58,222 nt of DNA from a virus (lineage: Duplodnaviria > Caudoviricetes): positions 1-58,222 of IMG/VR virus record IMGVR_UViG_3300045978_000161, one strand, 5' to 3'. Positions 3,288 through 49,095 of this stretch are shown piece after piece. Position 1 is the first letter of the stretch; every line of letters starts with the position of its first letter. The notes under the pieces are model-generated. The model worked only from the letters and a program-made list of their open reading frames with translations. It did not search any database and was not told the origin of the DNA. The translations under genes were made by a program, and so were the position numbers.

Positions 3288-3814
3288 CGGATGCCGTCCT
3301 GCAGGTAGGTGTTGTCGCGGAAAGATCCGTCGGCGATCGCGCCGCTCATGTCCATGTACGCGCGCACGGCCTGGATCATTTCGAGCGCGCCCTTGCAGAT
3401 CTCCGCGTGATAGCCCCAACGTCGCAGGTCATCGCGCCACGTGGTCTGTTCCGCCTTCGGCGTCTCGCCTTCTCGCTTTGCTTCGAGATAAAGACCATGA
3501 AACCGACCGGAGGGAGTGTGGATCACGTAGTCGGGGAAGCCGGGCTTCATGCCGATCGACACCATGACCGCGGTCATCGCTCCCGCCTTGCCGCGCTCAT
3601 TCGGGATCTTCGCGAGCCGGCGGAAGATGGTCTCGCCCTGGAAGGTCACGAGCTGGGTCCACGCGATGAAGGTCCGACACTCGTCGGTCTCCAGCGGCGG
3701 TGCCGGATGCTGTGCCTTCCGCCGGCCCTGCTGCGTCGAGTGCGCAGCGTGCCGTTTCAACGGCGGGCGGTTGAGAGCGTCGAGATCTGCCTGGGTCATG
3801 CGCCGGCGTTTCAT
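3284..3814 (-). CDS. VRR-NUC domain nuclease (resolvase-like)
   Basis: IPNE...GMKPGFPD...GLYLEAK...EQ..W...L...GY motifs. Confidence 0.85.
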   Translation of the reverse strand: MKRRRMTQADLDALNRPPLKRHAAHSTQQGRRKAQHPAPPLETDECRTFIAWTQLVTFQGETIFRRLAKIPNERGKAGAMTAVMVSIGMKPGFPDYVIHTPSGRFHGLYLEAKREGETPKAEQTTWRDDLRRWGYHAEICKGALEMIQAVRAYMDMSGAIADGSFRDNTYLQDGIR

Positions 3815-3987
3815 CGCAGGTAGATGTACCCGATCGAGAAGCCGGCGAGCGCGACCAGGATGCAGTGGGCCACGAGCCCGGAGATCAGCCAGCGCATGTG
3901 GCCCTCGCGCAGCTGCATGAACGCGCCGATGGCCGCGGTCCCGTGGAACGCGATCACCAGGCCGAGCGTTATCTTGACGATGAGCAT
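3811..3987 (-). CDS. Small two-TM membrane protein
   Basis: 58 aa, GGGAGG SD before ATG 3987, two hydrophobic segments. Confidence 0.6.
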   Translation of the reverse strand: MLIVKITLGLVIAFHGTAAIGAFMQLREGHMRWLISGLVAHCILVALAGFSIGYIYLR

Positions 3988-4029
3988 GTTCGATCCTCCC
4001 CAGTTGGCCGGTGCATCCCCACAGCTCAT

Positions 4030-4380
4030 GCCCAGCTTTTCCACCTGATATCCACAGCCTCAAAAAGATTCGCGCGCGCGCGTCCGGATCCAGAGGTGCC
4101 AATCCGAAGTGCTACACGAGGCGTTCCAAATCCGCTGGGAGCTACCACTCCAGAGTGCAGATTTTCAGAGCGGAGGCGCACGGGTCCCTACCCACTCATG
4201 TGGCCGGACCTCGTGCGCCTGCCGGATCTGTTCAGACCCCCGTCGCATCAACGCAGCCGTCTCACCTGTTGCGGTGACGACTACCTGGTTCGCGGACAAC
4301 ACCGCGGGGCGCCGGGTCCAAGTACCCTCCGGCTCGCTTTCGCCCCAGGCCTGGCCCTCCCCGCCAGGCACTTCACTCCT
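4030..4380. other. Structured non-coding region; candidate replication origin and/or ncRNA
   Basis: No convincing ORF; stems at 4174-4220 and 4349-4369; two 1-mismatch DnaA-box-like 9-mers (4037-4045, 4048-4056); (CG)6 at 4071-4082. Confidence 0.4.
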
Positions 4381-4482: not shown

Positions 4483-4911
4483 TCATGAGTTGAGCCCCTG
4501 GGCCTTCAATGTGGCAACGATATGCACGGACACCCGCCCTTCATGCGTGCGCTCGTGCATCACCAAGCCGTGCACCTCGTCGGGATGCTGCTCGAGCAGC
4601 TCCAGGACGACGCGCAGCTGCGCGAGCGCGCGGATCCGCATGTCGTCGCTGCGCGGCGCGCGCACGGTCATGTCGAAGCGTGGATCGGCCAGCGCGGCGA
4701 TCTGCGATGCCGTGACCAGCGGGTTCTCGATGAGTGGCTTCAGCAGCTCCGCGATCGCCGCGCTTGACCAGTGCACCGCGCTCACACCTTCGCAGGCGCG
4801 TATATCGACATCGAGCTGTCGCAGGGCGGTGCAGATGGCCTGCAGGCGGCCGAGAAGGGTGTCGGCCGCGGCCAATGCCACGGGCCCGTCTGCGGGCGTC
4901 TCAGGCGCCAT
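4483..4911 (-). CDS. Hypothetical protein with short TerS-like segment
   Basis: About 142 aa (start 4911 or 4920); DEVHGLVMHERT-HEG resembles TerS DLMHGLVVQVRTAHEG. Confidence 0.6.
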   Translation of the reverse strand: MAPETPADGPVALAAADTLLGRLQAICTALRQLDVDIRACEGVSAVHWSSAAIAELLKPLIENPLVTASQIAALADPRFDMTVRAPRSDDMRIRALAQLRVVLELLEQHPDEVHGLVMHERTHEGRVSVHIVATLKAQGLNS

Positions 4912-5137
4912 GCGGGGCATCCAGAGCGGGGACTTCGGTGGATCCACGTGGAACCAGGCGAAGGGCGTTGCGCGCACTGCGCGTCGCCGCCAGCTCCAGG
5001 GCCGACGGCGTGACGGGCGCACCGCACTGACAGCACTCCTCGCCCGGCTCGCCGATGGCCTGCTGATTCGGCGAGCAGCACCGGCAGTAATTGCCGGGCT
5101 GCTGGTAGGCGAGCGGTGGCGCGTCAACGTCCGCCAA
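4901..5137 (-). CDS. Small Cys-rich zinc-binding protein
   Basis: CRCC...CCQC; TTG start at 5137 inferred. Confidence 0.5.
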   Translation of the reverse strand: MADVDAPPLAYQQPGNYCRCCSPNQQAIGEPGEECCQCGAPVTPSALELAATRSARNALRLVPRGSTEVPALDAPHGA

Positions 5138-5363
5138 TGATCTTCTCCACGGTCGCGCGGTTGCGCTGCAGGACGTCCAGGATGGCGCGCGCCCCACTGC
5201 CCTCGATCGAGCCGTTGATCACGATGGTGATGGGCGCGGCCACGGGCGCGACCTTGGCGGGCAGCGCGGCCGCGGGGACTGAGAGCTCCGGCGCCGCGGC
5301 GCCGACGAGTGGCAGGGCCGCAGGTGCGGCGACGAGGCCACCGAGAAGCTGGCGACGGTTCAT
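5124..5363 (-). CDS. Twin-Arg leader peptide fused to a tape-measure C-terminus mimic
   Basis: MNRRQLL leader; last 24 aa are 11/24 identical, ungapped, to the last 24 aa of the tape measure. Confidence 0.8.
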   Translation of the reverse strand: MNRRQLLGGLVAAPAALPLVGAAAPELSVPAAALPAKVAPVAAPITIVINGSIEGSGARAILDVLQRNRATVEKIIGGR

Positions 5364-5584
5364 GCGTACACCTCGCGCGCGAGAAGTTCGTAGGGCATCT
5401 GCAGGCTTTCCGCGATCTGCCGAATCATCGTCGTGACGAATGCCGAGTAGGCTTCGGCGTTTTCGTAGGCGTCGAGATCGGCGAGCCGCTGGAGCAGCGC
5501 CGGCGAACCAGGCGAGGGCGCGAGCATCTGCGCCGGTGCGGTGGCGCCGGCGATCGCACCGAGGATCAGTTCGCGGCGGTTCAT
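5360..5584 (-). CDS. Twin-Arg leader peptide fused to a portal-segment mimic
   Basis: MNRRELI leader; YSAFVTTMIRQIAESLQMPYELL is 8/23 identical, ungapped, to portal YDPFFMAVCRQIGAALEIPLDEL. Confidence 0.75.
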   Translation of the reverse strand: MNRRELILGAIAGATAPAQMLAPSPGSPALLQRLADLDAYENAEAYSAFVTTMIRQIAESLQMPYELLAREVYA

Positions 5585-5811
5585 GGCAGTTCCACCGTCT
5601 GCGTGGCGCCCGGCACCACGGCGCCGAAGCCCAGGCGGCTGCAGCGGATGTTCTTGCCGGGGTTATCGAACATCGCCGCGTGCAACGTCACGCGATCGTT
5701 GGCCTCGTGTACCGCGAGCTGCTGGCCCTGCACCACCGTCATCGGTGCCTGCGCGAGCGCGATGTGGCGCGCGTCCAGGCCTGCGGCCGCGGCCTTCTCG
5801 TAACGATTCAT
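5581..5811 (-). CDS. Hypothetical protein
   Basis: 76 aa, ATGA-coupled at both ends. Confidence 0.65.
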   Translation of the reverse strand: MNRYEKAAAAGLDARHIALAQAPMTVVQGQQLAVHEANDRVTLHAAMFDNPGKNIRCSRLGFGAVVPGATQTVELP

Positions 5812-5981
5812 GCCACTGGCACCGGGGCCGCTGCCGAACGACCCCGGGCCTTGTCTGCAGACTTATGACTTCGGACATCCCGTGCTTGGCCGTCGGCCGG
5901 GATGTGAGCCTTGCGGCTCGACCTGATCAGCCGGTGCGCATGGCGGCACACCTGATACACGCTGCAGCGCCCGCGGATCAT
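5808..5981 (-). CDS. Possible small basic ORF overlapping structured RNA
   Basis: 57 aa, ATGA overlaps at both ends, atypical composition, three hairpins inside. Confidence 0.35.
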   Translation of the reverse strand: MIRGRCSVYQVCRHAHRLIRSSRKAHIPADGQARDVRSHKSADKARGRSAAAPVPVA

Positions 5982-6292
5982 TCGCGCCTTCCCGCGGGAA
6001 ACCCTTCTTGGGGCACGGCATCTGGCCCCTGTGCGCAAGGGTTAGATTCTTTCGCGGCGCGCTGCTTTGCGAGCGCCGCCTGTAGTTTGGGCCAATCGGC
6101 CTGGCGCACGTAGCAGATGCGTGCGGCGTGGTCGATCTCGAAGCGCTGCGCGCGAGGTTCGCGCGGATGGCCTGGCGCGACCGGGATCATGGTGAAGTCG
6201 GCGAGCGTCGGATCCGGTGCCTTGACCACCGCGGCGGGTTCCTCCGCGGGGACAATGCTCGCCGCGATCGCGGCCCGGATCAGGTGGTTCAC
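5978..6292 (-). CDS. Hypothetical protein with tail-tip-like motif
   Basis: 104 aa; KAPDPTLADFTMIPVAPGHP resembles tail-tip KPRSAALEDFDVPVAEEDRP. Confidence 0.7.
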   Translation of the reverse strand: MNHLIRAAIAASIVPAEEPAAVVKAPDPTLADFTMIPVAPGHPREPRAQRFEIDHAARICYVRQADWPKLQAALAKQRAAKESNPCAQGPDAVPQEGFPAGRRE

Positions 6293-6375
6293 TTCTTGGC
6301 CTTTGACGCGAGCAGAAGCGACACACCAAGCACCAGCAGGATGTAGGCGAGGTTGATCCAGCCGTCGCGTGTCAT
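6289..6375 (-). CDS. 28-aa hydrophobic peptide mimicking the tail-tip N-terminal helix
   Basis: MTRDGWINLAYILLVLGVSLLLASKAKK; start overlaps the cro stop, stop overlaps the next start; 9/21 identical, ungapped, to tail-tip residues 20-40. Confidence 0.7.
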   Translation of the reverse strand: MTRDGWINLAYILLVLGVSLLLASKAKK

Positions 6376-6677
6376 GGTGCGCCGAGTCCGTAGATGTCGG
6401 GCCGCAGATGCCGGCGCGTCACGGCCATGTCCGTGAGGATCTCGACGTGGCTCCAGTAGCGCTCGTCGATGAATTGGCCTTCGCTCACCCACCAGGCGAT
6501 CGCCTGCACGGTGACGGGTCGCTCGCCGGCGGACTCCATGCGCGTGCGCAGCCGGCGCGCGAATTCGGCCTGCGAGCCGCACGCCGTAAAGGCGCGGCGC
6601 AGGGCAATTCTTACCTGCTCCTGCGCCTGGTCGAGATTCACACCGGGGAAGATCTTCTGGTTTTCGGCCAGTGCCAT
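6372..6677 (-). CDS. Cro/YdaS-like HTH transcriptional regulator
   Basis: GSQAEFARRL...VTVQAIAWW...VTRRHLRPDIY; first gene at a divergent promoter region. Confidence 0.85.
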   Translation of the reverse strand: MALAENQKIFPGVNLDQAQEQVRIALRRAFTACGSQAEFARRLRTRMESAGERPVTVQAIAWWVSEGQFIDERYWSHVEILTDMAVTRRHLRPDIYGLGAP

Positions 6678-6679
6678 GT

Positions 6680-6850
6680 GCAGCTTTTACACCTGAGCCC
6701 GCAACAGACTCAAGGCGCACCTGTGAAATTCTTTCCGCGCCGCGTTGCAAGTAGGTATTGACAGGCCCCTCCGACAGCGAATCCCTGCCCCTATTTTCAA
6801 TTGTCAAGGCGCGTGGTAAATATCGGGCATGTTGCAGAGTGCGCACAGGT
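6680..6850. promoter_or_regulatory. Divergent promoter region
   Basis: AT-richer gap between divergent operons; TTGACA on + (6758-6763) and on - (6807-6802); TTGAGT-18-TAAAAG just before the cro ATG. Confidence 0.55.
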
Positions 6851-7026
6851 CGATGCTCCTGAAGCTCGCGCGGAATCACGCGATCGAGCTGCGCGGCCGT
6901 CTGTCAGTGGCGCGTCAAGTTCTCGGCCCGGCGCACCCCAAAGTCGGCGAGATCAAGAGCGAGCTGCTGCTCGCGGTCGATGCTGTGCGCACTCTGTACA
7001 CTGAACCCGAAAGGGTGGCCGCGTGA
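6829..7026 (+). CDS. Hypothetical protein
   Basis: Short ORF, first gene of the rightward operon; start uncertain. Confidence 0.45.
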   Translation: MLQSAHRSMLLKLARNHAIELRGRLSVARQVLGPAHPKVGEIKSELLLAVDAVRTLYTEPERVAA

Positions 7027-7125: not shown

Positions 7126-7473
7126 ATGCCAGAGCCACGCCTTGAATGCCGCGACTGCGGTGAGTCGCTAGTAGTCTGCGATCGCTGCGTCGACGATGAT
7201 GATGTCGCCTCCTCCGCCTATCCACTCACGAGCGAAGCGCGGCGCGTTTTCCACATCGGGATATGCCCCTATCATGGTGCGCTCGCCAGGCGGTGCCCGA
7301 GGTGCGTACCGACGCATCTGATCGAGCCGGTCGACAACGGCCGCGTTGGTCCATCTCCGGAAATTCCCGATCGAATTATTCGCGCAGGTATGGTGTGCCT
7401 GCTCGTCGGCTTCGTCGCCGGCGTGCTGCTCACGCTGCTCTTGCTGCCGCAGATCGCGGCGAGGATGCACTGA
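7126..7473 (+). CDS. Cys-rich protein with C-terminal TM helix
   Basis: Multiple CxxC motifs; hydrophobic tail; strong SD. Confidence 0.7.
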   Translation: MPEPRLECRDCGESLVVCDRCVDDDDVASSAYPLTSEARRVFHIGICPYHGALARRCPRCVPTHLIEPVDNGRVGPSPEIPDRIIRAGMVCLLVGFVAGVLLTLLLLPQIAARMH

Positions 7474-17618: not shown

Positions 17619-17828
17619 GTGATTACGATCAACGTCAGGGTCAATGAAGGGACAGCGTTGCTGGCGGCCGCGCAGGAGACGATCGCGCTCGCGAGCCGAT
17701 TGAACTGCCACGTCGACTTCGTGTTCGAGGGTAAGCACTGCCGCGCGATGCCTGGCGGCTCGCCGGCGGCGTTCGCGAAGGCGATCGGCGAGGGCACGTC
17801 GCTGCGGATCATCGGGAGCGAGACATGA
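17619..17828 (+). CDS. Hypothetical protein
   Basis: 69 aa from GTG 17619. Confidence 0.55.
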   Translation: MITINVRVNEGTALLAAAQETIALASRLNCHVDFVFEGKHCRAMPGGSPAAFAKAIGEGTSLRIIGSET

Positions 17829-18340
17829 ACGACAGCTTTCCCAGTCTGCTGTTCGTCGTGCTGGTGGTGGCGCTCGTGGTGATCGCGGTCAGTAAGAGCT
17901 GCGAGCAGAAGGTGGCCGCGGTTCCGCCGGCGCCGGCGGCGGCGATCGAGCAGCCGCTGGTGCTCACCATGGAGGAATGCCGCAAGTTCCTGGTCGCCGC
18001 GGCCAACGATCGCGACAACGAGAACGTGCTGGTGTGGAACGCCTGCCTCGGCATCCAGGCTCTCGACTGGTGCGAGCTGCCGGTCGACGCGCAGCGCGCG
18101 CTACGTCGACACGGCGCCGCCGGGCGGATCTGCCCGGAGGACATCGCGCGCGAGGCGAAGTGCAATCCGCTGCAGATCAATCCGGAGACCGACAACAATC
18201 TGTCGCCGGCGGAGCTGCAGAAGAAGTCCCGGGCCTGGGCCGATTGCATGGGCTTCGAGTCGATCGAGTGGTGTGAGCTCGACCCGGCAAGCCGCAAGGC
18301 GCTGCAGGACATGGGAGCGCAAGGCCGCACCTGCATCTAG
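17825..18340 (+). CDS. Membrane-anchored or secreted Cys-rich protein with internal repeat
   Basis: N-terminal TM; WNACLGIQALDWCELP and WADCMGFESIEWCELD repeats. Confidence 0.7.
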   Translation: MNDSFPSLLFVVLVVALVVIAVSKSCEQKVAAVPPAPAAAIEQPLVLTMEECRKFLVAAANDRDNENVLVWNACLGIQALDWCELPVDAQRALRRHGAAGRICPEDIAREAKCNPLQINPETDNNLSPAELQKKSRAWADCMGFESIEWCELDPASRKALQDMGAQGRTCI

Positions 18341-19126: not shown

Positions 19127-19372
19127 CTAGCTTCCCTGCAGCCGCGCGTGATCCGACTCGATGCGGGTCAACACATCGTCCCAGTCTGCCTGGGTGACGT
19201 CACGCTCCTTCAACTTGTCGGCCACGAGCTTCATGTGCTCGTCGGTGGCCTTGCCCGCCTCGATCGCGTCGGCGACCAGGTGGAGCTTGGCTGCGCTCAC
19301 GGTGTCGCCGGCGATCGCGAGGGCGAGAGCCGCGGCGCGCAGTGCCACCACTCCGATGATTGCGCCGTTCAT
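19127..19372 (-). CDS. Small protein coupled to lipoprotein (possible lysis accessory)
   Basis: 81 aa, hydrophobic N-terminus, ATGA coupling. Confidence 0.6.
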   Translation of the reverse strand: MNGAIIGVVALRAAALALAIAGDTVSAAKLHLVADAIEAGKATDEHMKLVADKLKERDVTQADWDDVLTRIESDHARLQGS

Positions 19373-19782
19373 GGGGCACCTCCCGCGGACTTGATAGCGC
19401 GCAACAGGTTTGCGAGCTGCAAGACGGCATCGTTCACCGCAGATTGCAGTGCCTCCTGCGTTTCCGCGTTCTTGACGTTGGTGTAGGTCGCGGCGAGCTG
19501 ACGCAAGCCCGGCGTGGTGGGCGTGCCGATCACGATGTCGTGAACGGCCTTGTCCGCCTTCTTCAGCGCGTCGATCGCCGCCGGTGGTGTGCCAGGCCTG
19601 CTGGCAATGTCCGCAGCCTGCTTGACCAGTGCCGAGTAGTGCTCCGTCACGACGTAGGCGTACTCGTCGAGAGACTGCGCCTCCTGATATGCCGCCTTGG
19701 TGTTGGCGCAGCCGACCGCGAGCGCGGCCGCGGCGACGACCAGGAACAACCCGGCCAGCGGTGCTGTTCGCACATTCCGCAT
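19369..19782 (-). CDS. Lipoprotein (possible spanin-like)
   Basis: Signal peptide with lipobox LAVG-C; helical body; GGAGGA SD. Confidence 0.7.
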   Translation of the reverse strand: MRNVRTAPLAGLFLVVAAAALAVGCANTKAAYQEAQSLDEYAYVVTEHYSALVKQAADIASRPGTPPAAIDALKKADKAVHDIVIGTPTTPGLRQLAATYTNVKNAETQEALQSAVNDAVLQLANLLRAIKSAGGAP

Positions 19783-28115: not shown

Positions 28116-28418
28116 TCAAACGTAAGTGCGATTGGTCCACTGGGCAAATTCGTCGATGTCCGCGTTTACCCAATCGGCGTGTTCATAGATGTAATTGCGC
28201 GTATTCCAGGCGATGCCAGCCTGGCCGGCGCCGGCGACCACCGTCACCCAGGCATCGTTAGCGTCGTTGCGCACCTTGAGTGCATTACCGTTGCCGGAGT
28301 CGACCCACCACTTGCCCGGGCCGACGAAGTTGGCGGCGTCGAGTGCGGGGTCGGTGTTCTGAAAGAACGCTGCGGGGTGTACCGCGAATTTTCCGGCGAG
28401 TAGGTGATGCTCGGTCAT
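28116..28418 (-). CDS. Small tail-fibre adaptor-like protein
   Basis: TDPALDAAN..GPGKWWVD...LKVRN.ANDAW; paralogue of 28418-28618. Confidence 0.65.
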   Translation of the reverse strand: MTEHHLLAGKFAVHPAAFFQNTDPALDAANFVGPGKWWVDSGNGNALKVRNDANDAWVTVVAGAGQAGIAWNTRNYIYEHADWVNADIDEFAQWTNRTYV

Positions 28419-28618
28419 CAGACTGCTCCCAGGCTTTCCCAGTCGGTGTTGCCAGTGTTGCGGATCTGCAGGATCAGCAAGCTCGGAATGAACCAGAGCT
28501 TGCCGGCAGTGATCGCGTTCGCGGCATCGAGCGCCGGATCCGTCTCGCTGTGGATTGCGATCGGGTGTATCGCTGATGGCCCGGTCTCACGCATGTGCGC
28601 TGTATAGGTAACGGGCAT
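28418..28618 (-). CDS. Small tail-fibre adaptor-like protein
   Basis: TDPALDAAN...GKLWF...LQIRNTGNTDW. Confidence 0.65.
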   Translation of the reverse strand: MPVTYTAHMRETGPSAIHPIAIHSETDPALDAANAITAGKLWFIPSLLILQIRNTGNTDWESLGAV

Positions 28619-30807
28619 CAGAAGGTCTCTCGCACGCCGGTGACAATTTCGCCGTCGCTGAATAGTACTTGAGGATCCGCTGGATCACCGTTGGACAGTG
28701 GCAATAGGTAATGCCCGCCGCCGGCGTTGAGTGTCACCTGGCCCGGTGTGGAGCTGTCGACCGTGATGCCGGTGCCGCCGATCAGCCGGCGCGAGTTGGC
28801 GAGCGTCGCGGTCTCATCGGCGAAGGTGATGAACGTCTGGTCGAGTGATCCACCTCCCACACGATCGGCCGAAATCTTTCGGTATGCCAGCAGGTTGTTG
28901 TCCCACACAACCAGGTCCATGTCGTCGAATGCCGGCGTGGTCTCGTCGACTTCATCGAGTGGCGGGATCGCCGGCGTCCAGGCCGGCGGGATCTGCGCGC
29001 CGTACTCGTCGACGGAAGTGTGCTGGCCCGTGCCCTGATCGAAGATGATCGAGCCTTCGCCCGGATCAATGAACGTCCAGGTGTCATCGTCGAGATCTGC
29101 CTCCGCGATTTCGCCCTCGTGGCCTGCCCACACGCCTGTCGCGCCTGGCCCGATGAGCCAGCGATCGCCATCGTTGACGGTTTCCACGTCCGGATCCGGC
29201 GGCGTGCTGCGCGTGCCCAGCACCGCGGAGGTCGGCGGCGGTGCATCGTCCGGCGGATCAATCGGCGCGATCGGTGTCGCCGTCGGTGTCTCCGCCTGGT
29301 ACTCGGTCCCGGGCAGCGCGTAGATGTCCTCCACTGCCTGCACGCTCACCTTCGAGTCCTGCAGGGTGCCGCTGCGCACGGTGATCACTCGGAACACGGT
29401 GGGCAGCAGCTCGTGAGGCTCCCACTCCAGGCGCACGACGTCGCCCGACTGGTGATTGAACGCGCGCAACGCCTCGAATTCGATTCGCGCCAGGGGCAGT
29501 GACTTCGCGAGCAGCTCGCGGCCGGCGACGCGGCGGATCAGCTCGTGATCGTTGATCGCGGTGAAGTCCATCTTCTCCGGGATCCGGCGGGCCTGTGCCT
29601 GGATGTTGCCGAGGTCCTGGACGACGATCTCCGCGGCCTTGCCGGTGTCGGGGTTCGTCCAGGCGAGTGTCAGCTCGTTGACCGTCTCGCCCCAGCTGCG
29701 TCGCTCGAAACTCTCGACCCTGTTGATCGTGCCCTTGCCGTACAGCGGCAGATCCGCCGGCACATAGTCGCCGCGGATGAGTTTGATCAGGTAGCGGCCG
29801 GTCGAAGGATCGAACGCGAGAATGCCGGCGATGTGATCGAGCACGATGCCCAGGAAATCTTCGATGCTCGTCTGCTGGTTCCACAGCATGTTGAGCCCGA
29901 ACTCCTCATCGAACAGCGTGTCGGCGACCGCGCGAAAGTTGGCGTCGGTGATGTCGTCGACCGGATCCGCGGCCATGCCCCACTCAGGATCCGTCAGGCA
30001 CTGATAGATGATGTGCGCCGGATTCATTCCGGTGCCGCCGCCCGGTAGCGTGATGGTGGCCTTCTCCGGATACCACACCTCATCGTCGTGCCAGCCCTTC
30101 TCGATGCGCGTGGCCGTGACTGCCATCGCTTTCACGTAAGGAGTGGTGCCGACGTAGCCCTTGGTGAGCACCTTGAGGAGCCCGCGGATGCCGGCGCCCG
30201 GCACCTGCTGAGTGCCGCGCTTGGACACCAGGCAGAACACACCGCGATACGCCGGCACCGGCGCCGCCTGCTGGCTCGCGAGATAGGTGTTCACCGCCTG
30301 GTCCGCGGCGCCCATGCACACGTCGACGTCGGCGATGTAGCCGCCCTCGCGCTTCTCACCGCCGAACAGATTCGGCTGATTGATGTCGAGCGTCGTGTTG
30401 TCGGTGGCGTTGCCGGACCAGGCGAGCTTGTCGCCCATTTCGATCTTCGTCAGCTTGTCGACGGGCCCATGGCAGAACCCGAGGTGCATTCCCAAGTGAT
30501 ACTTGTAGCCGACGGTGGTCGAGGAAAAGAGCGACTTCTTCTTGATCTTGATGCTCTTGAGATCGCCGTACCACAGCACGTTCGCGCCGGTGATGCGCCA
30601 GGTGCCGAACAGCACCGGGATCGGCCTGTCCTCCTCCGCCACCGGAACGTCGAAATCTTCCAGCGCTGCCGATCGCGGCTTCGGCGGCTTGGGCGCCAGC
30701 ACGATCGAGAGGATCAGGACGATGATGTAGTAAATGATCTGGACCCATCCGCCTTGATATTTGCGGATGTTCCGGATCTGTCGGCGAGTTCTAGCTAGTC
30801 CTAACAT
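28618..30807 (-). CDS. Tail tip / hub protein with fused N-terminal tail-assembly module and DUF2793-like C-terminal segment
   Basis: PIPVLFGT..ITGANVLWYGD; VGYKYHLGMH.GFCHGPVD; MNPAHIIY.CLTDPEWG; GDRWLIG..ATGVWAGHEGEIA. Confidence 0.85.
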   Translation of the reverse strand: MLGLARTRRQIRNIRKYQGGWVQIIYYIIVLILSIVLAPKPPKPRSAALEDFDVPVAEEDRPIPVLFGTWRITGANVLWYGDLKSIKIKKKSLFSSTTVGYKYHLGMHLGFCHGPVDKLTKIEMGDKLAWSGNATDNTTLDINQPNLFGGEKREGGYIADVDVCMGAADQAVNTYLASQQAAPVPAYRGVFCLVSKRGTQQVPGAGIRGLLKVLTKGYVGTTPYVKAMAVTATRIEKGWHDDEVWYPEKATITLPGGGTGMNPAHIIYQCLTDPEWGMAADPVDDITDANFRAVADTLFDEEFGLNMLWNQQTSIEDFLGIVLDHIAGILAFDPSTGRYLIKLIRGDYVPADLPLYGKGTINRVESFERRSWGETVNELTLAWTNPDTGKAAEIVVQDLGNIQAQARRIPEKMDFTAINDHELIRRVAGRELLAKSLPLARIEFEALRAFNHQSGDVVRLEWEPHELLPTVFRVITVRSGTLQDSKVSVQAVEDIYALPGTEYQAETPTATPIAPIDPPDDAPPPTSAVLGTRSTPPDPDVETVNDGDRWLIGPGATGVWAGHEGEIAEADLDDDTWTFIDPGEGSIIFDQGTGQHTSVDEYGAQIPPAWTPAIPPLDEVDETTPAFDDMDLVVWDNNLLAYRKISADRVGGGSLDQTFITFADETATLANSRRLIGGTGITVDSSTPGQVTLNAGGGHYLLPLSNGDPADPQVLFSDGEIVTGVRETF

Positions 30808-34227: not shown

Positions 34228-35142
34228 TCACTCCAGTTTGATCGCCGCGTAGTAGTACCGCGCGGTGCGGTGGAGATTCTGCACGACCAGGTACGGAATG
34301 CCGTCGATCGTCACCGTGTTCTCGGATGCATTGTTGAAGCCCGACACCGCATACACACCGTCGATCTCGCCAAAGGTGTCGCTGACCGGATTGGTGCCCA
34401 TGAGGATTAGTGGCTTCAGCCAGTAGGTCCCGTCGACGTTCTCCCGTAGCTCGCGATAGCGCGTCTGCACCTGCCCATCCAGCGAGTCCGCGGCATAAGG
34501 CCACACGTGATTGCTGCTCGAGACGCCGGACTCACCGCCGCCCGACTGCTGGAAGTTCTGCACCGCGCGCCAGGATCCGGCGCCGGGCATCAGCATGTAG
34601 GCGCTGCTGCCTGGATCCCAGAAGTTGCGGTTGTTCTCATTGGTCGTCGACCAGCGAGTTGTCGGTGTGGCGACCGGCGCCGCGAGGTAGTAAGGCTGCG
34701 GGTATTCGCCCGGCGTGCCGTATGGCAGGTATTTGCCGGCGTGCGCCGACGGGTAGACGGTCGAGACCTTCGGAGTGATCGTGACGCGCTGGCCGTTCGC
34801 CACGAACCAGTACTGCATCGGCTGATTCCAGATCGGCAGATAGACCACCGTCGAAATGCCGGGCTGCTCGAGATCTCCCAGGCCCGCGTTGTAGCTGCGG
34901 AACATCCAGATGCCGAGCGCATAGGTGTCGGTGCCGACATCTTCGTGCAGGCTGAAGCCGACGAAGATCTCCTCCGTGGTGCTGATGCCAGGCGCCATGT
35001 ACAACGCGCGCTTGTTGAGTGAGTCGTAGCGCAGCAGCTCCCAGTCCGGGCCGCCCGGCGTGGTGACGCTGCGCTCCAGGAAATCGCGCAGCCGATCGAA
35101 CAGATCTTCGTGATCGGCTGCGGTGTCAATCTCGACGGCCAT
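34228..35142 (-). CDS. Virion structural protein
   Basis: ATG 35142; YWFVANGQR; GEIDGVYAVSGFNNASEN. Confidence 0.8.
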   Translation of the reverse strand: MAVEIDTAADHEDLFDRLRDFLERSVTTPGGPDWELLRYDSLNKRALYMAPGISTTEEIFVGFSLHEDVGTDTYALGIWMFRSYNAGLGDLEQPGISTVVYLPIWNQPMQYWFVANGQRVTITPKVSTVYPSAHAGKYLPYGTPGEYPQPYYLAAPVATPTTRWSTTNENNRNFWDPGSSAYMLMPGAGSWRAVQNFQQSGGGESGVSSSNHVWPYAADSLDGQVQTRYRELRENVDGTYWLKPLILMGTNPVSDTFGEIDGVYAVSGFNNASENTVTIDGIPYLVVQNLHRTARYYYAAIKLE

Positions 35143-37814
35143 CAGCGCCCTCCTAACAATCGTTTCAGTGTCACCGAGTTCTTGCTGATGACGTTCATGA
35201 TCGCCCGTTCGCCGGACGCGGAGTTGATCCCGTCGGCGACCAGGTTCTCGTCGACCAGGTTGACGATGCGGATGCCCTGGGTGCCGGAAGCCTGCGCGCC
35301 GGCGGGCGTGCTGACAGGTGGACCCACCTGGCCGCCGGTGGCGAAGCGCGGCGCGCGCATCACATCGCGGAGCCGCAAGCGACCGGCGTTCCACGCGCGC
35401 ATGAAATTGAGCGCGCCCGGCTCCATGAGCCTCGCCTTGCGCAGCACGAATTCGCCCTCTTGCGCGAGGATCGGGATTTTGTCCGGCCCCGGGATCGGGA
35501 GCCTTGGGCCGGCAACATCGCCGCCGCCGACATAGCCGCGGATGCGGCCGCCGTACTGCGCCAGGCCCGCGCCGACGCCGGTCAATCCGGATCCGGCCTG
35601 CGTCGCGCCGCCGGCGCCGCCACCGAAGGCGCTGAACAAGGTGCGCACCAGGGCGAGCGTCGCCTGCTGCGCGATGATCTCGGCCACCATCCGGCGCAGC
35701 GAGTCGACCACACTGCGCGCCAGAGACTTGAAGGCGTCGCCGATGTCCTCGATCTTGTCGGCGTTCGCGAGGAAATCCTCCAGGCCCGACTGGAAGGCGT
35801 CGATGCCGGCGTTGCGGAACTGCGTGGCGAAGTCGGTCGCGGCCTTGTAGCTCAACGCGATCTGATCCACCGACGCGGCGAACTCGCGCGCCTTCTTTAT
35901 CTGCTCCTCGTTGCCCGACGCTTCGGCCGCCGCGAGCATCGCCTGCGCGAGCTGCTGGAGCAGCTCCAGCCGCTGCTGTTCCAGGTCCAGGATTGCGCGC
36001 TCGCCCTCGGCCTGGCTGCGCAAGCCGAGTTCGACGTCGTTGCGGATCTGCTCCTGGTCGCGCTGGAAGGCTTCGAGCGCATCACTGCCCTGTCGCTGCA
36101 GCTCATCGAAGTTGAACGCCTGCTCCGACAGCGCGCGCACCCTGTTGACGGTGGCCTCGATCTCCGCGGCCGTCTGCCCGGCGCGGATCCCAAGCTCGCG
36201 GATCTGCTCCAGCTCCAATTCGAGGTTGTTCTGGAAGGCCTGGTGCCGGTTGCCCTCCAGGTCCGCGAGCTTCGTCTGCAGCTCCAGCTGCTGCTGGCCG
36301 AGTTCTTTTCGTGCGGCCGCCTCGTCGGCGTCGATCTGCGCCAGCTCGCGCGCGGACGCGACCCGCTGCCGGGCGATCTGCGCATCGAGCTGCGCGAGCT
36401 GCTGGCGCAGCTTGATGCGATCGGCCTCATCCTCCGGGCCACCTTCCGTGCTGCTCGAGTTCAGCTGCGAGACGAGTGCGGCGCGCTGCGCCTTCAAGGC
36501 CTGCAGTTCGACCGCGTTCTCCCGCTCCTGCAGCTCGCGCCGGCGGGCGAAGAATTGCTGCAGGGAGATCAGGCCCTGGTCGTAGGCGTTCTGATTCTCC
36601 TGATTCAGCGTTTTCAGGTGCTCTTGCTGCAGCTTCAGCTCATCGTCGAAGGCCTGCTTGCTGGCGGCGCGCTGCGCGGCCGCGGCCTTGCGCGCGGCAT
36701 CCAGCGCAAAGTTCGGATCCACGCCGAGTGGGGTGGCGGACTTCTTGGGCGGCTCGTCGGTGGTCAGCTTGTCGAACGCGCCGCGGATGTCCTCCGCGGC
36801 CGCAAGATCAATCTCCGCTCGCTCGCGGGCGCTGCGCTCGAATGCGGCGGCCGCACCCTCAAAGTCGCCCTTCGCGATCGCCTTGCCCGCGTCAATGATC
36901 GCGCTGACGAAGCTCACGACCTTCGCGGTCACCGCGCCGATGGTCCTGCCGACGCTCACGAACAGGAACGTGACCGTCTTGATCACGATGCCGATGGCCT
37001 GGCCGAGCACCTTGAAGCCGTTGGTGGCGCCCGTGGTCGCGCCCGTTATTGTCTCCATGGAGTCGGCGACCGCCGGCGCCAGGCCCGACAGGAACTGAGT
37101 GGCGACGCCTTCGGCCTGCAGGCCGATCGTCTGCAGTGAGTCGTTGGCGCGCGCGGCCGCGTCGGCGAGATCTGCGTCGATGAGTACGCCGAGTTCCTTC
37201 GCCTTCGCGATGAAGGCGTCGATGCCCTGCTCGCCCACCGCCTTCAGTGCGGTTGTGAGCTCGCCGGCGCCGCGGCCGAAGATGCGCTGCGCGGCGGCCG
37301 CGCGGTCGGCCGCGTTCGGGATCGCGGCGAGCTTGCGCGCAATCTCCTCCAGTGCTCGAGGCGCGGAGAGATTGCCGAACTTCGCGATGTCGACGCCGAT
37401 CGCGGCAAGGTTGTCCTTTGCCTCCTGGCTGCCGGCGGCCACCTGGCCCATGATGTTGGTCGTCTTGAACAGCGCGGTCTGCAGGCCTTCCTGGGACGAC
37501 TGGTTCTGCCGGAACGCGAGCGTCAGGCCCGACACTTCTTCGACGGTGCCTCCGACGGATGCGGCGAGCTTGCCGGTCTTGTCGGCGGTGTCGAGCGCCG
37601 CCTTGCCGAGCGCGATCATGCCGGCGACCGCGGCCGCGAGACCGATCGCGGGAAGGACTGACTTCAGCTCCTGGGCAGCCTGCTTGACCAGGCCGAGCTT
37701 CTTGCCGGCGTTGTCGCCGGATTTCTTCGATTCGTTTTCGATCTTCCGCAGCGCCGCGATGACTTCGTTGATGCCTTCGGGCGAGAGACGGACGCGAATG
37801 TCTGGGGTGCTCAT
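35142..37814 (-). CDS. Tape measure protein
   Basis: 890 aa, Ala-rich coiled coil; GPDKIPILAQEGEFVL...FATGG C-terminus. Confidence 0.95.
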   Translation of the reverse strand: MSTPDIRVRLSPEGINEVIAALRKIENESKKSGDNAGKKLGLVKQAAQELKSVLPAIGLAAAVAGMIALGKAALDTADKTGKLAASVGGTVEEVSGLTLAFRQNQSSQEGLQTALFKTTNIMGQVAAGSQEAKDNLAAIGVDIAKFGNLSAPRALEEIARKLAAIPNAADRAAAAQRIFGRGAGELTTALKAVGEQGIDAFIAKAKELGVLIDADLADAAARANDSLQTIGLQAEGVATQFLSGLAPAVADSMETITGATTGATNGFKVLGQAIGIVIKTVTFLFVSVGRTIGAVTAKVVSFVSAIIDAGKAIAKGDFEGAAAAFERSARERAEIDLAAAEDIRGAFDKLTTDEPPKKSATPLGVDPNFALDAARKAAAAQRAASKQAFDDELKLQQEHLKTLNQENQNAYDQGLISLQQFFARRRELQERENAVELQALKAQRAALVSQLNSSSTEGGPEDEADRIKLRQQLAQLDAQIARQRVASARELAQIDADEAAARKELGQQQLELQTKLADLEGNRHQAFQNNLELELEQIRELGIRAGQTAAEIEATVNRVRALSEQAFNFDELQRQGSDALEAFQRDQEQIRNDVELGLRSQAEGERAILDLEQQRLELLQQLAQAMLAAAEASGNEEQIKKAREFAASVDQIALSYKAATDFATQFRNAGIDAFQSGLEDFLANADKIEDIGDAFKSLARSVVDSLRRMVAEIIAQQATLALVRTLFSAFGGGAGGATQAGSGLTGVGAGLAQYGGRIRGYVGGGDVAGPRLPIPGPDKIPILAQEGEFVLRKARLMEPGALNFMRAWNAGRLRLRDVMRAPRFATGGQVGPPVSTPAGAQASGTQGIRIVNLVDENLVADGINSASGERAIMNVISKNSVTLKRLLGGR

Positions 37815-47365: not shown

Positions 47366-49095
47366 CACTGTCCCCCTTCCGGCGCTGCCTCCGGCTCCGG
47401 CACCTGCTGGCGCCGCGCCGGCGGCGCGTTCGGGTTCTCCGGATCCTGGCCCGGGGGATTCTGCCCCGGCCGCGCCGGATTGTCCGCGGAGCCCGGCGCC
47501 TGGCCTTGCGCCGGACGCAGCTCCATGTCGTTTGCCTTTCGCCATTTCTGCTCCCTCAGCCGCTGGCGGGCGACGGTCGACCAGTTCTCGCCCATGATCT
47601 GCGCGGTCTCGATCGTCTCGTTGCTGAAGCCGGCGTCGATGCGATCGCGCGCGGCCTGCACCTCATCCTTCTCCTGCATCGCACCGCGCGCGGGACCGAT
47701 CCAGATCGCCTTCTGATACGCGGCGCGACGCTTCGGATCCGCGTAGTCGGTGACCGTCACCTTGCCGCGGGCCACTGCCTCGTCGAACCACAGCGCGTAA
47801 TGCGGCTGGCAGAACTGCTGCACGAGCCACCACCGGCGCATGGAATAGAAGCGCCAGGCCTGCAGCATCGCGGCGCGCGCGGCGCTGTAGCTTGCCTGGT
47901 AGTTGAGGAGCAGCTCGTCGAGCGGTATCTCCAGTGCGGCGCCGATCTGCCGGCACACGGCCATGAAGAACGGGTCGTAGTTGCTGTTGGGCCGCGCGGG
48001 GTTTGCGAACTGCGCCTCCTCACCAGGTCCCAGATCCATGACGACGCCATTGCCGAGCGCCAGGCCCGACGCCTCACCCTTCGCCGTCATGCCAGGCACC
48101 GCGGGAATCGGGTTGCCCTTGTCGTCGAACTGGTTGCTCTCCCGCTTGATGAACACGGTGAACATCGCGGAGATGACCGCGGCGATCAGCTCCGCGCGCG
48201 AGTACTGCTCGAGCGTCTGCAGCGGCTCCAGGATCGGTGCGAGGTACGGCATCCCGCGCGTGGTGCCGATGCGATCCTTTTCATTCCACACCTGCAGGAT
48301 GCGGCGCCGCCCCTCCTCGTCGAAGATCTCGCGCCGGTCCCACACCATCGCGTCGACGCTCGCGAACTTGTCATCCGGGTGCCGCCGGCGGATGTGGATC
48401 GCGATCGGCCGCCCGTTGTCGGAGATCTCCACGCCGTCGAGAAGGTTGCGCGTGTCGGCCTGGCCGTTCTGATTGGTGACGCGCGCGGGGTCGATCAGCT
48501 GCACCTTGAGTTCGTACTGCGAGCCTTCGGCCGGCACCATCGGTGTCAGCGCGAAGCAGTCACCACCCAGGAGTGCGGTGATCAGCGCGAGCGACTGGAG
48601 CCCCGCGCCGTCGAGTGTCGCCTCGATGTCGACCTCCACCGGGTTGTCGTAGTAGCAAGCCCACTCCGACAGGATCTCGTTGTTCAGCTCCTCCGCCTGC
48701 TCCTCGCTGATGCCGAGCGCATCGGCGTCGACGTCGGGGTGCATGGTGAGGCCGGTGCCCACCACGTTCGTGCGCACGCGCGTCGCGGCCGCGCGCGCGA
48801 CCAGGTGGTTGCGGTACGCATCGAAGGATCGCGCCGCGGTGGTCTCGCGTTCCTTGCGCGAGTTGTCGCTGCGGCCGGATCCGAGCACCGGGCGCCAGCC
48901 GGTCATTGACCGCAGGAAATTGCTCGCGCCGCGCCACCGGGTTTCCGATCGCTGGCGCTCCACCGAGCTGCCGCTGTTCGCTTCCAGCTCCTTCAGGTGG
49001 TTGTACTGAATGCGGTGCAGGACGTTCTGCACGGCGCGCGCGGGGTTGATGGCGAACGCGATCCGCTCGCGCAGGCTCATGTCTGGAGCTTTCAT
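47365..49095 (-). CDS. Portal protein (lambda family)
   Basis: RSFDAYRN; TNVVGTGL; RIGTTRGMP; ASYSAARAA. Confidence 0.95.
   Translation of the reverse strand: MKAPDMSLRERIAFAINPARAVQNVLHRIQYNHLKELEANSGSSVERQRSETRWRGASNFLRSMTGWRPVLGSGRSDNSRKERETTAARSFDAYRNHLVARAAATRVRTNVVGTGLTMHPDVDADALGISEEQAEELNNEILSEWACYYDNPVEVDIEATLDGAGLQSLALITALLGGDCFALTPMVPAEGSQYELKVQLIDPARVTNQNGQADTRNLLDGVEISDNGRPIAIHIRRRHPDDKFASVDAMVWDRREIFDEEGRRRILQVWNEKDRIGTTRGMPYLAPILEPLQTLEQYSRAELIAAVISAMFTVFIKRESNQFDDKGNPIPAVPGMTAKGEASGLALGNGVVMDLGPGEEAQFANPARPNSNYDPFFMAVCRQIGAALEIPLDELLLNYQASYSAARAAMLQAWRFYSMRRWWLVQQFCQPHYALWFDEAVARGKVTVTDYADPKRRAAYQKAIWIGPARGAMQEKDEVQAARDRIDAGFSNETIETAQIMGENWSTVARQRLREQKWRKANDMELRPAQGQAPGSADNPARPGQNPPGQDPENPNAPPARRQQVPEPEAAPEGGQ

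Follow-up and report, generated by a model that had tools for sequence, protein, structure and literature searches.

A 28-codon open reading frame in a phage regulatory operon encodes a putative look-alike of the phage's own tail-tip helix

Introduction

Why would the regulatory operon of a tailed phage contain a 28-codon open reading frame (ORF) whose predicted product resembles the membrane helix near the N-terminus of the phage's own tail-tip protein? The question is raised by IMG/VR record IMGVR_UViG_3300045978_000161 (Duplodnaviria; Caudoviricetes), a sequence of 58,222 bp and 65% G+C that was analysed over its full length and is called the window throughout. The record is listed as linear, with a completeness of about 81%, and near-identical sequence occurs in soil metagenome runs. 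The phage it describes is a siphophage. Its head genes are of lambda type, namely terminase gpA, a portal of the lambda family and major capsid protein E, and its tail-tip module, which is of the Yuavirus/PaMx28/Chi type, comprises a tape-measure protein (TMP), two 'tail assembly' proteins of 561 and 272 amino acids (aa) and a 729-aa tail protein. Genes named below lie on the minus strand unless marked otherwise.

The locus bears on a problem of wider interest. For most entry-stage exclusion proteins, the mechanism by which they stop an incoming phage is unknown, and the first structural answer, the binding of the TMP by T4 Imm, dates from 2026. An earlier note on this DNA, made from the letters alone, had read the 28-codon ORF and the ORF that follows it as a two-part mimic of the tail-tip plug, possibly acting as a membrane-inserted superinfection-exclusion peptide. 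Here we examine how far the resemblance exceeds what hydrophobic helices reach by chance, what the neighbouring genes of the operon encode, and which explanations fit the locus as a whole.

Results

Resemblance between the peptide and the tail-tip helix

The peptide is encoded at 6289..6375, from an ATG at 6375 to a TGA at 6289, by an ORF of 87 nucleotides (nt). It begins with MTRDGW, ends with ASKAKK and comprises one predicted membrane helix and a lysine-rich C-terminal flank (KAKK); a 19-residue stretch has a mean Kyte-Doolittle value of 2.1, which classes it as an integral membrane peptide by hydropathy alone. An ungapped alignment places peptide residues 5-25 on residues 20-40 of the 729-aa tail-tip protein (28618-30807), a hydrophobic helix encoded at 30688..30750, with 9 of 21 residues identical and a BLOSUM62 score of 55. 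This is the alignment that the earlier note had claimed, and it is borne out as given; extension to a common lysine raises the identities to 10 of 24. Each partner's helix is covered in full, from the tryptophan at the helix start to the basic flank. The landmarks common to the peptide and the tail family are that tryptophan, an amide two residues on (N for Q), an aromatic residue at position 6-7, a serine, and then L-A-x-K.

The earlier note held that its idea would fail if random transmembrane helices matched the tail-tip helix equally well. We ran this comparison with shuffled and with real sequences, and all real-sequence controls stayed below 55. Hydrophobic-core shuffles reached 55 in 1 of 20,000 trials and nine identities in 0.5%, and whole-peptide shuffles never reached 55. 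The control set consisted of 1169 proteins from 82 related loci, which had been gathered through the tail N-terminus. Among 416 real hydrophobic segments that are non-homologous to the tail helix, the maximum was 37 against the helix and 27 against the peptide; none reached 55 and one had nine identities. Pairing real with reversed segments (n = 20,815) gave no score of 55 or more and two of 50 or more, and a fitted Gumbel distribution, whose tail is heavier than the one observed, yields 8e-4 per pair.

We also scanned translated sequence at large. Against the 2,445,844 six-frame residues of the 82 loci, the tail 21-mer scored at least 30 at 70 positions, 69 of which are true tail-helix homologues at the expected place, the remaining one scoring 31; only one true homologue (57) outscores the peptide (55). 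With the peptide as query, four of the five positions at or above 30 are tail-family helices. Inside the window, the top match to the tail helix other than the helix itself is the peptide, ahead of a runner-up at 29, and the same pair ranks first among the 276 pairs formed by the window's 24 hydrophobic segments (runner-up, 29). A cross-genome scan set 11 genomes (five complete phages, five 80-kb prophage regions and the window) against their 11 cognate helices. The 110 mismatched scans had a mean of 28.6, a standard deviation of 3.8 and a maximum of 44, compared with 55 for the window scanned with its own helix, and the best of 120 control genome scans was also 44. The peptide scores 55 against the helix of its own phage and has a median of 24 and a maximum of 36 against 57 other helices of the family.

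Coding evidence for the 28-codon ORF

The ORF lies within a run of tightly coupled genes that begins at 6677. The first gene of this operon (6372..6677) encodes a 101-aa YdaS/Cro-like helix-turn-helix regulator (PF15943, E 1.8e-8, 34.5 bits against a cut-off of 30; phrog_35 transcriptional repressor, E 3.6e-4), and the third, ORF2 (5978..6292), encodes a 104-aa protein. The 28-codon ORF fills the 80-nt gap between the two exactly, its ATG overlapping the TGA of the YdaS-like gene (ATGA) and its TGA overlapping the GTG of ORF2 (GTGA). The G+C content of third codon positions (GC3) was profiled per frame in 45-nt windows. The top frame is that of the YdaS-like gene to about 6415, that of the peptide (0.79-0.93) over 6385-6325 and that of ORF2 from 6310, and the GC3 of the neighbouring frames falls where that of the peptide frame peaks. 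The exact fit and the GC3 profile argue for translation of the peptide, and we infer that 6375..6289 is a real gene whose translation is coupled to that of the YdaS/Cro-like gene; with no Shine-Dalgarno motif ahead of the ORF, translation would rely on such coupling. Contigs from four runs (two RNA-library and two DNA) agree with the window at every position of the peptide and offer no variants on which a selection test could draw.

A structured RNA or a known RNA family as the content of the 80-nt gap was considered and rejected, the gap having no Rfam match and a fold z-score of 0.15 relative to shuffles. A YdaT-like partner for the regulator was also sought: neither the 28-aa peptide nor ORF2 has a Pfam match, YdaT included, and the YdaS-YdaT pair was not encountered here. 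Upstream of the YdaS-like gene, at 6678-6996, the sequence GCGCCTTGA occurs twice, once within TTGACA, and a perfect 14-nt inverted repeat (6835-6848 / 6983-6996) brackets a divergent 65-aa ORF; the GCGCCTTGA copies and the inverted repeat are possible operator or promoter elements.

The tail-tip insertion module

The helix that the peptide resembles belongs to a recognisable module. The 729-aa protein as a whole matches the phrog_1101 tail protein (E 2.6e-167). Its first ~95 residues correspond to a free-standing membrane protein of ~76 aa in most relatives; 79 such homologues were found, and the module corresponds to PaMx28 gp31, SN1_039 and counterparts in M6, CN2 and Vibrio 033B. Residues 21-92 match phrog_1180 (E 1.7e-25). 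The conserved core of the module reads DFDVPxAEEGRPIPVVFGT...NVLWYGD, with invariant D, F, P, I, F, G, N, V, W and G. In PaMx28, SN1, CN2, M6 and Vibrio 033B, a gene for a ~77-aa membrane protein precedes a 66-68-aa gene and then the tail protein gene. The window has module and tail protein joined in a single 729-aa ORF, and a 19-residue arginine-rich extension precedes the helix.

Structures of related tips indicate where such a module sits. The tail N-terminal family profile matches chain U of PDB 8VJH ('Tail assembly protein 1', 76 aa; E 3.4e-21). For the 890-aa TMP (35142-37814; assigned by TMP PHROG families), the last ~50 residues find their counterpart at the C-terminus of the tape measure of phage Chi (8VJH chain Q, residues 1381-1431; E 1.3e-4). 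Homologues of both virion parts that appear to be copied in the operon, the tip helix and, as described below, the TMP C-terminus, are present within 8VJH as chains U and Q. The figure legend of a T1 study identifies 8VJH as phage Chi, and according to that study the TMP C-terminus and a trimeric 'insertion protein' of T1 lie inside the lumen of the tip cone, with a similar feature in lambda and Chi (PMC11945409). A preprint on the F7 pyocin, where the equivalent protein is called the tail hub internal protein, proposes that the hydrophobic helices of this protein enter the target's outer membrane, as for lambda gpI (PMC12874032). The view that the helix is part of a tip 'plug', taken in the earlier note, fits this record, the tail N-terminus being homologous to 8VJH chain U, a tip-lumen protein.

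A recent DNA duplication of the 5' end of the tail gene was tried as a source of the peptide ORF and rejected: nucleotide identity is 41/72, third positions agree at 11/24, and the best local DNA alignment between the peptide and tail regions is a 10-nt chance match. The module core has left no trace in the three-frame translation of 6375-5950, and the peptide ends three residues past the helix. Searches with the peptide returned no match by tblastn against 50,697 phage records at E<=10, and in Pfam, PHROG and NCBIfam no family above cut-off and no described exclusion family.

Virion-fragment genes in the operon

ORF2 is followed by a 166-nt gap and then by ORFs of 76, 74, 79 and 214 codons, four consecutive reading frames that overlap stop-to-start by 4 nt and have GC3 values of 0.80-0.87. 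Two of them are related to virion proteins. The 79-aa protein (5124..5363) is a free-standing paralogue of the C-terminal ~60 residues of the TMP. Its last 34 residues match TMP residues 857-890, encoded at 35145..35246, with 13 of 34 identical and E 3.3e-5 in a blastp search of the window proteome, and a local alignment joins its residues 20-79 to TMP 828-890, GGR ending both. A search of the relatives' loci with its last 40 residues brings back TMP C-termini. Conversely, a profile of the TMP C-termini of 52 relatives, built with no window sequence, matches the 79-aa protein at E 5.5e-4, and this is the sole window protein below E 1 besides the TMP. In that match, residues 55-76 fall on profile positions 55-76 and carry the terminal motif G-x-G-E/x-R/K-x-I-L-N-x-x-x-R-N-x-x-x-V; over the core motif, the protein is identical to other TMPs at 10/17 positions and to its own TMP at 8/17. 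The only homologue of similar length among 138 candidates was the protein itself, and tblastn against the phage records gave no match.

The 74-aa protein (5360..5584) is a diverged piece of a lambda-family portal. It aligns to positions 302-330 of the 354 in Pfam Phage_portal_2 (PF05136; E 5.7e-5, 22.9 bits, under the cut-off of 32.9) and to the phrog_537 portal (E 1.8e-4). A tblastn search of the 50,697 phage records matched 13, namely nine annotated as portal, three as 'hypothetical protein' and one unannotated, and the best of these matches cover residues 5-74. Over that span it aligns to residues 323-378 of a Fusobacterium phage portal, which correspond to residues 346-401 of the window's own 576-aa portal (encoded at 47893..48060; the own portal matches PF05136 at E 1.4e-87), with a score of 90 to the Fusobacterium phage portal and of 36-44 to the own portal. 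By these comparisons, the 74-aa protein is a fragment-level homologue of portals that cannot itself be a portal.

The 74-aa and 79-aa proteins have a common N-terminal MNRR.L..G. Twin-arginine signals on the two (MNRRELI.. and MNRRQLL.., respectively) were considered and not adopted: the N-termini align to the portal and the TMP, Pfam TAT_signal scores E 0.052 on the 79-aa protein, below cut-off, and does not match the 74-aa protein, NCBIfam gives none, and N-terminal hydropathy is modest (1.59 for the 79-aa and 1.03 for the 74-aa protein).

The 76-aa ORF (5581..5811; GC3 0.87), whose stop overlaps the next start, has no family or phage match in Pfam, PHROG, NCBIfam or by tblastn, and its Atlas model is too poor for use (pLDDT 0.44). 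The 214-aa ORF (4483..5127; GC3 0.80), the last that is tightly coupled, has no family or phage match in PHROG, NCBIfam or by tblastn; its C-terminus is weakly similar to portal residues 127-168 (E 0.26), and its arginine-rich first ~60 residues may be non-coding. Compared with the virion proteins, the products of the 76-aa ORF, the 214-aa ORF and ORF2 gave no match. The operon thus appears to hold at least two short diverged copies of virion-protein parts, and three if the peptide is counted. Two of these, the tip helix and the TMP C-terminus, correspond to parts that are in mutual contact in the lumen of solved tips.

ORF2 and the second proposed match

The earlier note had extended the mimicry to ORF2 by a second match, LADFTMIPVAPGHP in ORF2 versus LEDFDVPVAEEDRP in the tail protein, and had argued from the order of the two matches, the same as in the tail gene. 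This second match was not borne out: it amounts to 4/14 identities ungapped and is missing from the five best ORF2-tail alignments of BLASTP. ORF2 has a small family of its own, 15 proteins at E<=1e-3, itself included, among 1.84 billion representatives, and its relatives come mostly from Logan assemblies, some of them on contigs of 21-57 kb. An alignment of 12 members displays a conserved N-terminus (M..LR.AI.A.L), which fixes the GTG start at 6292, and a core of the form PVxPGHxxEPxPKxFxI..CYVRxADWPxLxxALxxxRA. PVxPGH is therein the family's own motif, and the LADF stretch is variable and follows just a hydrophobic-x-x-hydrophobic pattern. Comparison of the tail N-terminal family with the ORF2 family by hhalign gave a probability of 1%. 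From the helix end to L..DF there are ~32 codons in the operon and 8 in the tail gene, and the argument from collinearity falls together with the ORF2 match. ORF2 as a second half of the mimic is ruled out by its own family, the hhalign and BLASTP results and the lack of any trace of the module core, and it stands outside the mimicry.

ORF2 has no match in Pfam, PHROG or NCBIfam, and a search for homologues of similar length returned only the query itself. The ORF2 profile found nothing in five prophage-bearing genomes (0/5), and blastn of the operon region against phages and plasmids gave no match.

Other features of the window

Two small predicted membrane proteins flank the operon, a 115-aa protein at 7126-7473 (+) with a cysteine-rich N-terminus and a C-terminal helix, which the GC3-based gene rule did not select, and a 77-aa protein at 3811-4044 (-) with two hydrophobic segments; family searches gave no match for either. 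The small genes at 28116-28418 (-) and 28418-28618 (-), downstream of the tail gene, are adjacent paralogues that share ..HP....TDPALDAAN.. (score 71), and the 329-aa gene after this pair carries a weaker version of the shared segment (score 45). The 171-aa protein encoded at 17825-18340 (+) combines a hydrophobic helix at its N-terminus with an internally repeated segment, C.G...(L/I).WCEL (score 61). At 19127-19782 (-), a 137-aa ORF with a lipoprotein-like signal (..LAVGC..) is followed by an 81-aa ORF with an N-terminal hydrophobic helix, and the two could be a spanin or envelope protein pair.

Discussion

Our analysis started from a resemblance between two short hydrophobic helices, and its meaning depends on the genes around it. 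The analysis shows a peptide that resembles the tip helix, the arrangement of the genes, paralogues next to the peptide in the operon and parent parts that adjoin one another in related phages; that the peptide is translated, inserted into the membrane, made early and used for exclusion is what we infer. We propose, as a preferred and still tentative explanation, that an early-made decoy of the injection plug keeps the DNA of superinfecting siblings from entering. A 28-residue single-pass membrane peptide would be translated through coupling to the YdaS/Cro-like gene; its helix would have diverged from a copy of the N-terminal membrane helix of the phage's own tail-tip protein or been selected to mimic that helix, and the operon would also yield a free copy of the TMP C-terminus (79 aa). 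In the solved lambda-like tips, the insertion protein and the TMP end share the lumen and leave first upon infection. Expressed early and inserted into the inner membrane of the infected cell, the peptide would pair or compete with the incoming tip helices or the tape measure of an arriving sibling, with the effect that no DNA conduit forms, and the 79-aa protein may do likewise for the TMP C-terminus. The outcome would be superinfection exclusion at the DNA-entry step, comparable to that of T4 Imm and achieved through self-mimicry. That the peptide is closest to the helix of its own phage suits the exclusion of siblings, and a bare membrane helix favours a block of entry, for which T4 Imm and other entry blockers provide precedents. 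We also hold it possible, if doubtful, that operon-made copies of the tip helix and the TMP C-terminus together with the portal piece jam the DNA delivery or the assembly of sibling or related phages.

The results in this paragraph, and the search results in the next, weigh against the proposal of an entry-blocking decoy. The ORF lacks a Shine-Dalgarno motif, and the RNA-library contigs identical to the window span 5749-6754, a coverage that does not demonstrate transcription. An integrase and a tRNA were looked for in the window, and neither was found. Relatives' loci were sought through ORF2, the YdaS-like protein, ORF2 alignments and four ORF2 relatives, and none was confirmed among viral, metagenome or genome contigs. 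A second helix-like ORF occurs in 0/10 other genomes with this tail module, where the best own-genome scores are 24-36. The DNA comparison of the peptide and tail regions bears no trace of a duplication event, and a portal fragment in the operon does not fit a block of entry.

Sequence searches bear also on the explanation by chance, in which the ORF either goes untranslated or encodes a small membrane protein of unrelated kind, such as one that regulates a host membrane protein or a membrane-active peptide; we consider it unlikely. BLASTP, with composition correction, finds no alignment of the peptide to the tail protein at E<=100, and E 1.5 with its filters off. The profile comparison with the tail-tip insertion family that the earlier note had suggested went against it, the peptide being recognised neither by the family hidden Markov models (HMMs) nor by PHROGs. 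With the full-length family HMM, it is absent from the 27 best of 1212 ORFs; with a helix-only HMM, it lies outside the window's four best ORFs (maximum 3.0 bits by default, 7.0 without null2); and a PHROG scan at E<=10 returns phrog_15036 alone (E 0.088). Unrelated hydrophobic families do no worse on the peptide, a different small-protein model, NCBIfam LAXTG_small_WW, reaching a sub-threshold E 0.0019, and the three prolines of the tail-family helix (W-x-Q ... S-x-x-A-L-A-P-K-P-P) are S, A and K in the peptide. The absence of a counterpart in the ten other genomes and the missing Shine-Dalgarno motif point the same way, and the match was spotted post hoc in a reading of the whole window. An all-against-all comparison of the window proteome (1.2e8 pairs) gave distinct pairs at 71, 61, 59, 55, 51, 50, 47, 47 and 45. 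The other three pairs at or above 55 are taken as genuine (neighbouring paralogous genes, a repeat inside one protein and the TMP pair), and noise reaches 50-51. Extrapolation suggests that a chance score of 55 would be expected somewhere in the proteome about 0.2-0.45 times, and the helix match would not be significant unless the hypothesis is restricted. When it is limited to hydrophobic segments or to the operon versus the virion proteins, we estimate the corrected chance at roughly 1-3%. Against chance stand the real-sequence controls, all far below 55, and the alignment, which covers both helices entirely from the tryptophan to the basic flank. In addition, two adjoining operon genes are demonstrable homologues of virion fragments, which raises the prior for a third, and the exact fit of the ORF and its GC3 favour translation. 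On balance, the resemblance between the peptide and the tail helix is probably not accidental.

If the resemblance has a biological basis, the operon may still serve another end than a block of entry. The fragments could be dominant-negative poisons of the virion assembly (tip, TMP and portal) of competing phages, co-infecting or resident, in the manner of Tai. This explanation, which we regard as rather unlikely, accounts for the portal fragment too, better than entry exclusion does, and agrees with the 74-aa protein being nearer to a foreign portal (90) than to its own (36-44) and with the 79-aa protein being as near to other TMPs (10/17) as to its own (8/17). Phage Tai proteins are described as blocking tail assembly, with escape in the central tail fibre J (PMC11364771). 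However, a 28-residue helix would be bound to the membrane, whereas tips assemble in the cytoplasm, and the peptide is most like the helix of its own phage, which under this explanation would amount to self-poisoning; there are also no family matches, and similarity to Tai was neither compared nor seen. An improbable alternative is that the fragments are early decoys that occupy host immune sensors of the portal, the TMP and the tip without triggering them. Avs-type sensors recognise the portal and the terminase, and in the operon three virion proteins are represented by short, diverged, free copies within one regulatory region. Immune systems that recognise structural components of phages are described in general terms in the Tai source (PMC11364771). 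In this case, a membrane helix would be odd against cytoplasmic sensors, and no known anti-defence family was matched in Pfam, PHROGs or NCBIfam.

Finally, the ORFs could be decaying, functionless leftovers of structural genes caught by illegitimate recombination, an explanation to which we assign very little probability. Phage genomes are mosaics, and the pieces are short, stand in another order than in the structural module and share only 30-40% of their residues with any parent; the 79-aa protein was moreover the only one of its length among its 138 candidate homologues. Neutral fragments that have diverged this far should nevertheless lose their frames, whereas four consecutive ORFs keep their starts, their 4-nt overlaps and a GC3 of 0.80-0.87, and the peptide ORF fits its gap exactly.

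Should the fragments act as decoys, several consequences would follow. The specificity of exclusion could be read from sequence, because a decoy resembles its target, and such genes could be found by comparing small early ORFs with the phage's own virion proteins. ORFs below the usual 30-codon cut-off would have a function in phage regulatory regions, and the decoys would give a handle on the parts of the tip that contact the inner membrane in lambda-like DNA delivery. Even with another function, an operon of three diverged virion-fragment genes would be an unusual and testable object. A limited literature search found no description of exclusion or interference by virion-fragment decoys.

The closest comparison is with the parent family itself, the insertion protein (phrog_1180, labelled 'tail assembly chaperone'; 8VJH chain U; also T1, lambda gpI and the F7 tail hub internal protein, THIP). 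Like the insertion protein, the peptide has a hydrophobic N-terminal helix with a tryptophan at its start, an amide two residues on, S-x-x-L-A-x-K and a basic flank. Unlike it, the peptide stops after the helix, lacks the core and the APKPP prolines and is missed by the profiles, and its gene lies in a regulatory operon 24 kb from the tail genes. With its core absent and the profiles failing, the peptide is probably not a member of the tip insertion-protein family.

The exclusion proteins HK97 gp15, P22 SieA and TP-J34 Ltp are 100-160 aa long. HK97 gp15 and P22 SieA block entry at the inner membrane, and for entry-stage exclusion proteins escape maps to the TMP or to ejection proteins (PMC10883804). 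The peptide would be like gp15, SieA and TP-J34 Ltp in its location in the inner membrane or envelope and in blocking DNA entry, both of which are proposals in its case; it differs in that those proteins are expressed from prophages and none is described in the accessible text as resembling a virion part (PMC10883804). Tai, which is encoded by phages or satellites, interferes with the tail tip of other phages and is escaped by changes in the central fibre J; unlike the peptide as proposed here, it acts on assembly and not on entry, and nothing in the accessible part of the source presents it as a tail-protein fragment (PMC11364771). T4 Imm is a small early membrane protein that binds the TMP and hinders the docking of its transmembrane segment, and its relation to a virion protein is not a subject of the accessible text (bioRxiv 10.64898/2026.03.06.709160). 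In its fitted model Imm has four helices, against one in the 28-aa peptide, whose helix resembles a virion part. Like Imm, the peptide would be a small phage membrane protein of the infected cell, and the same kind of competition with the incoming tip is what we propose for it.

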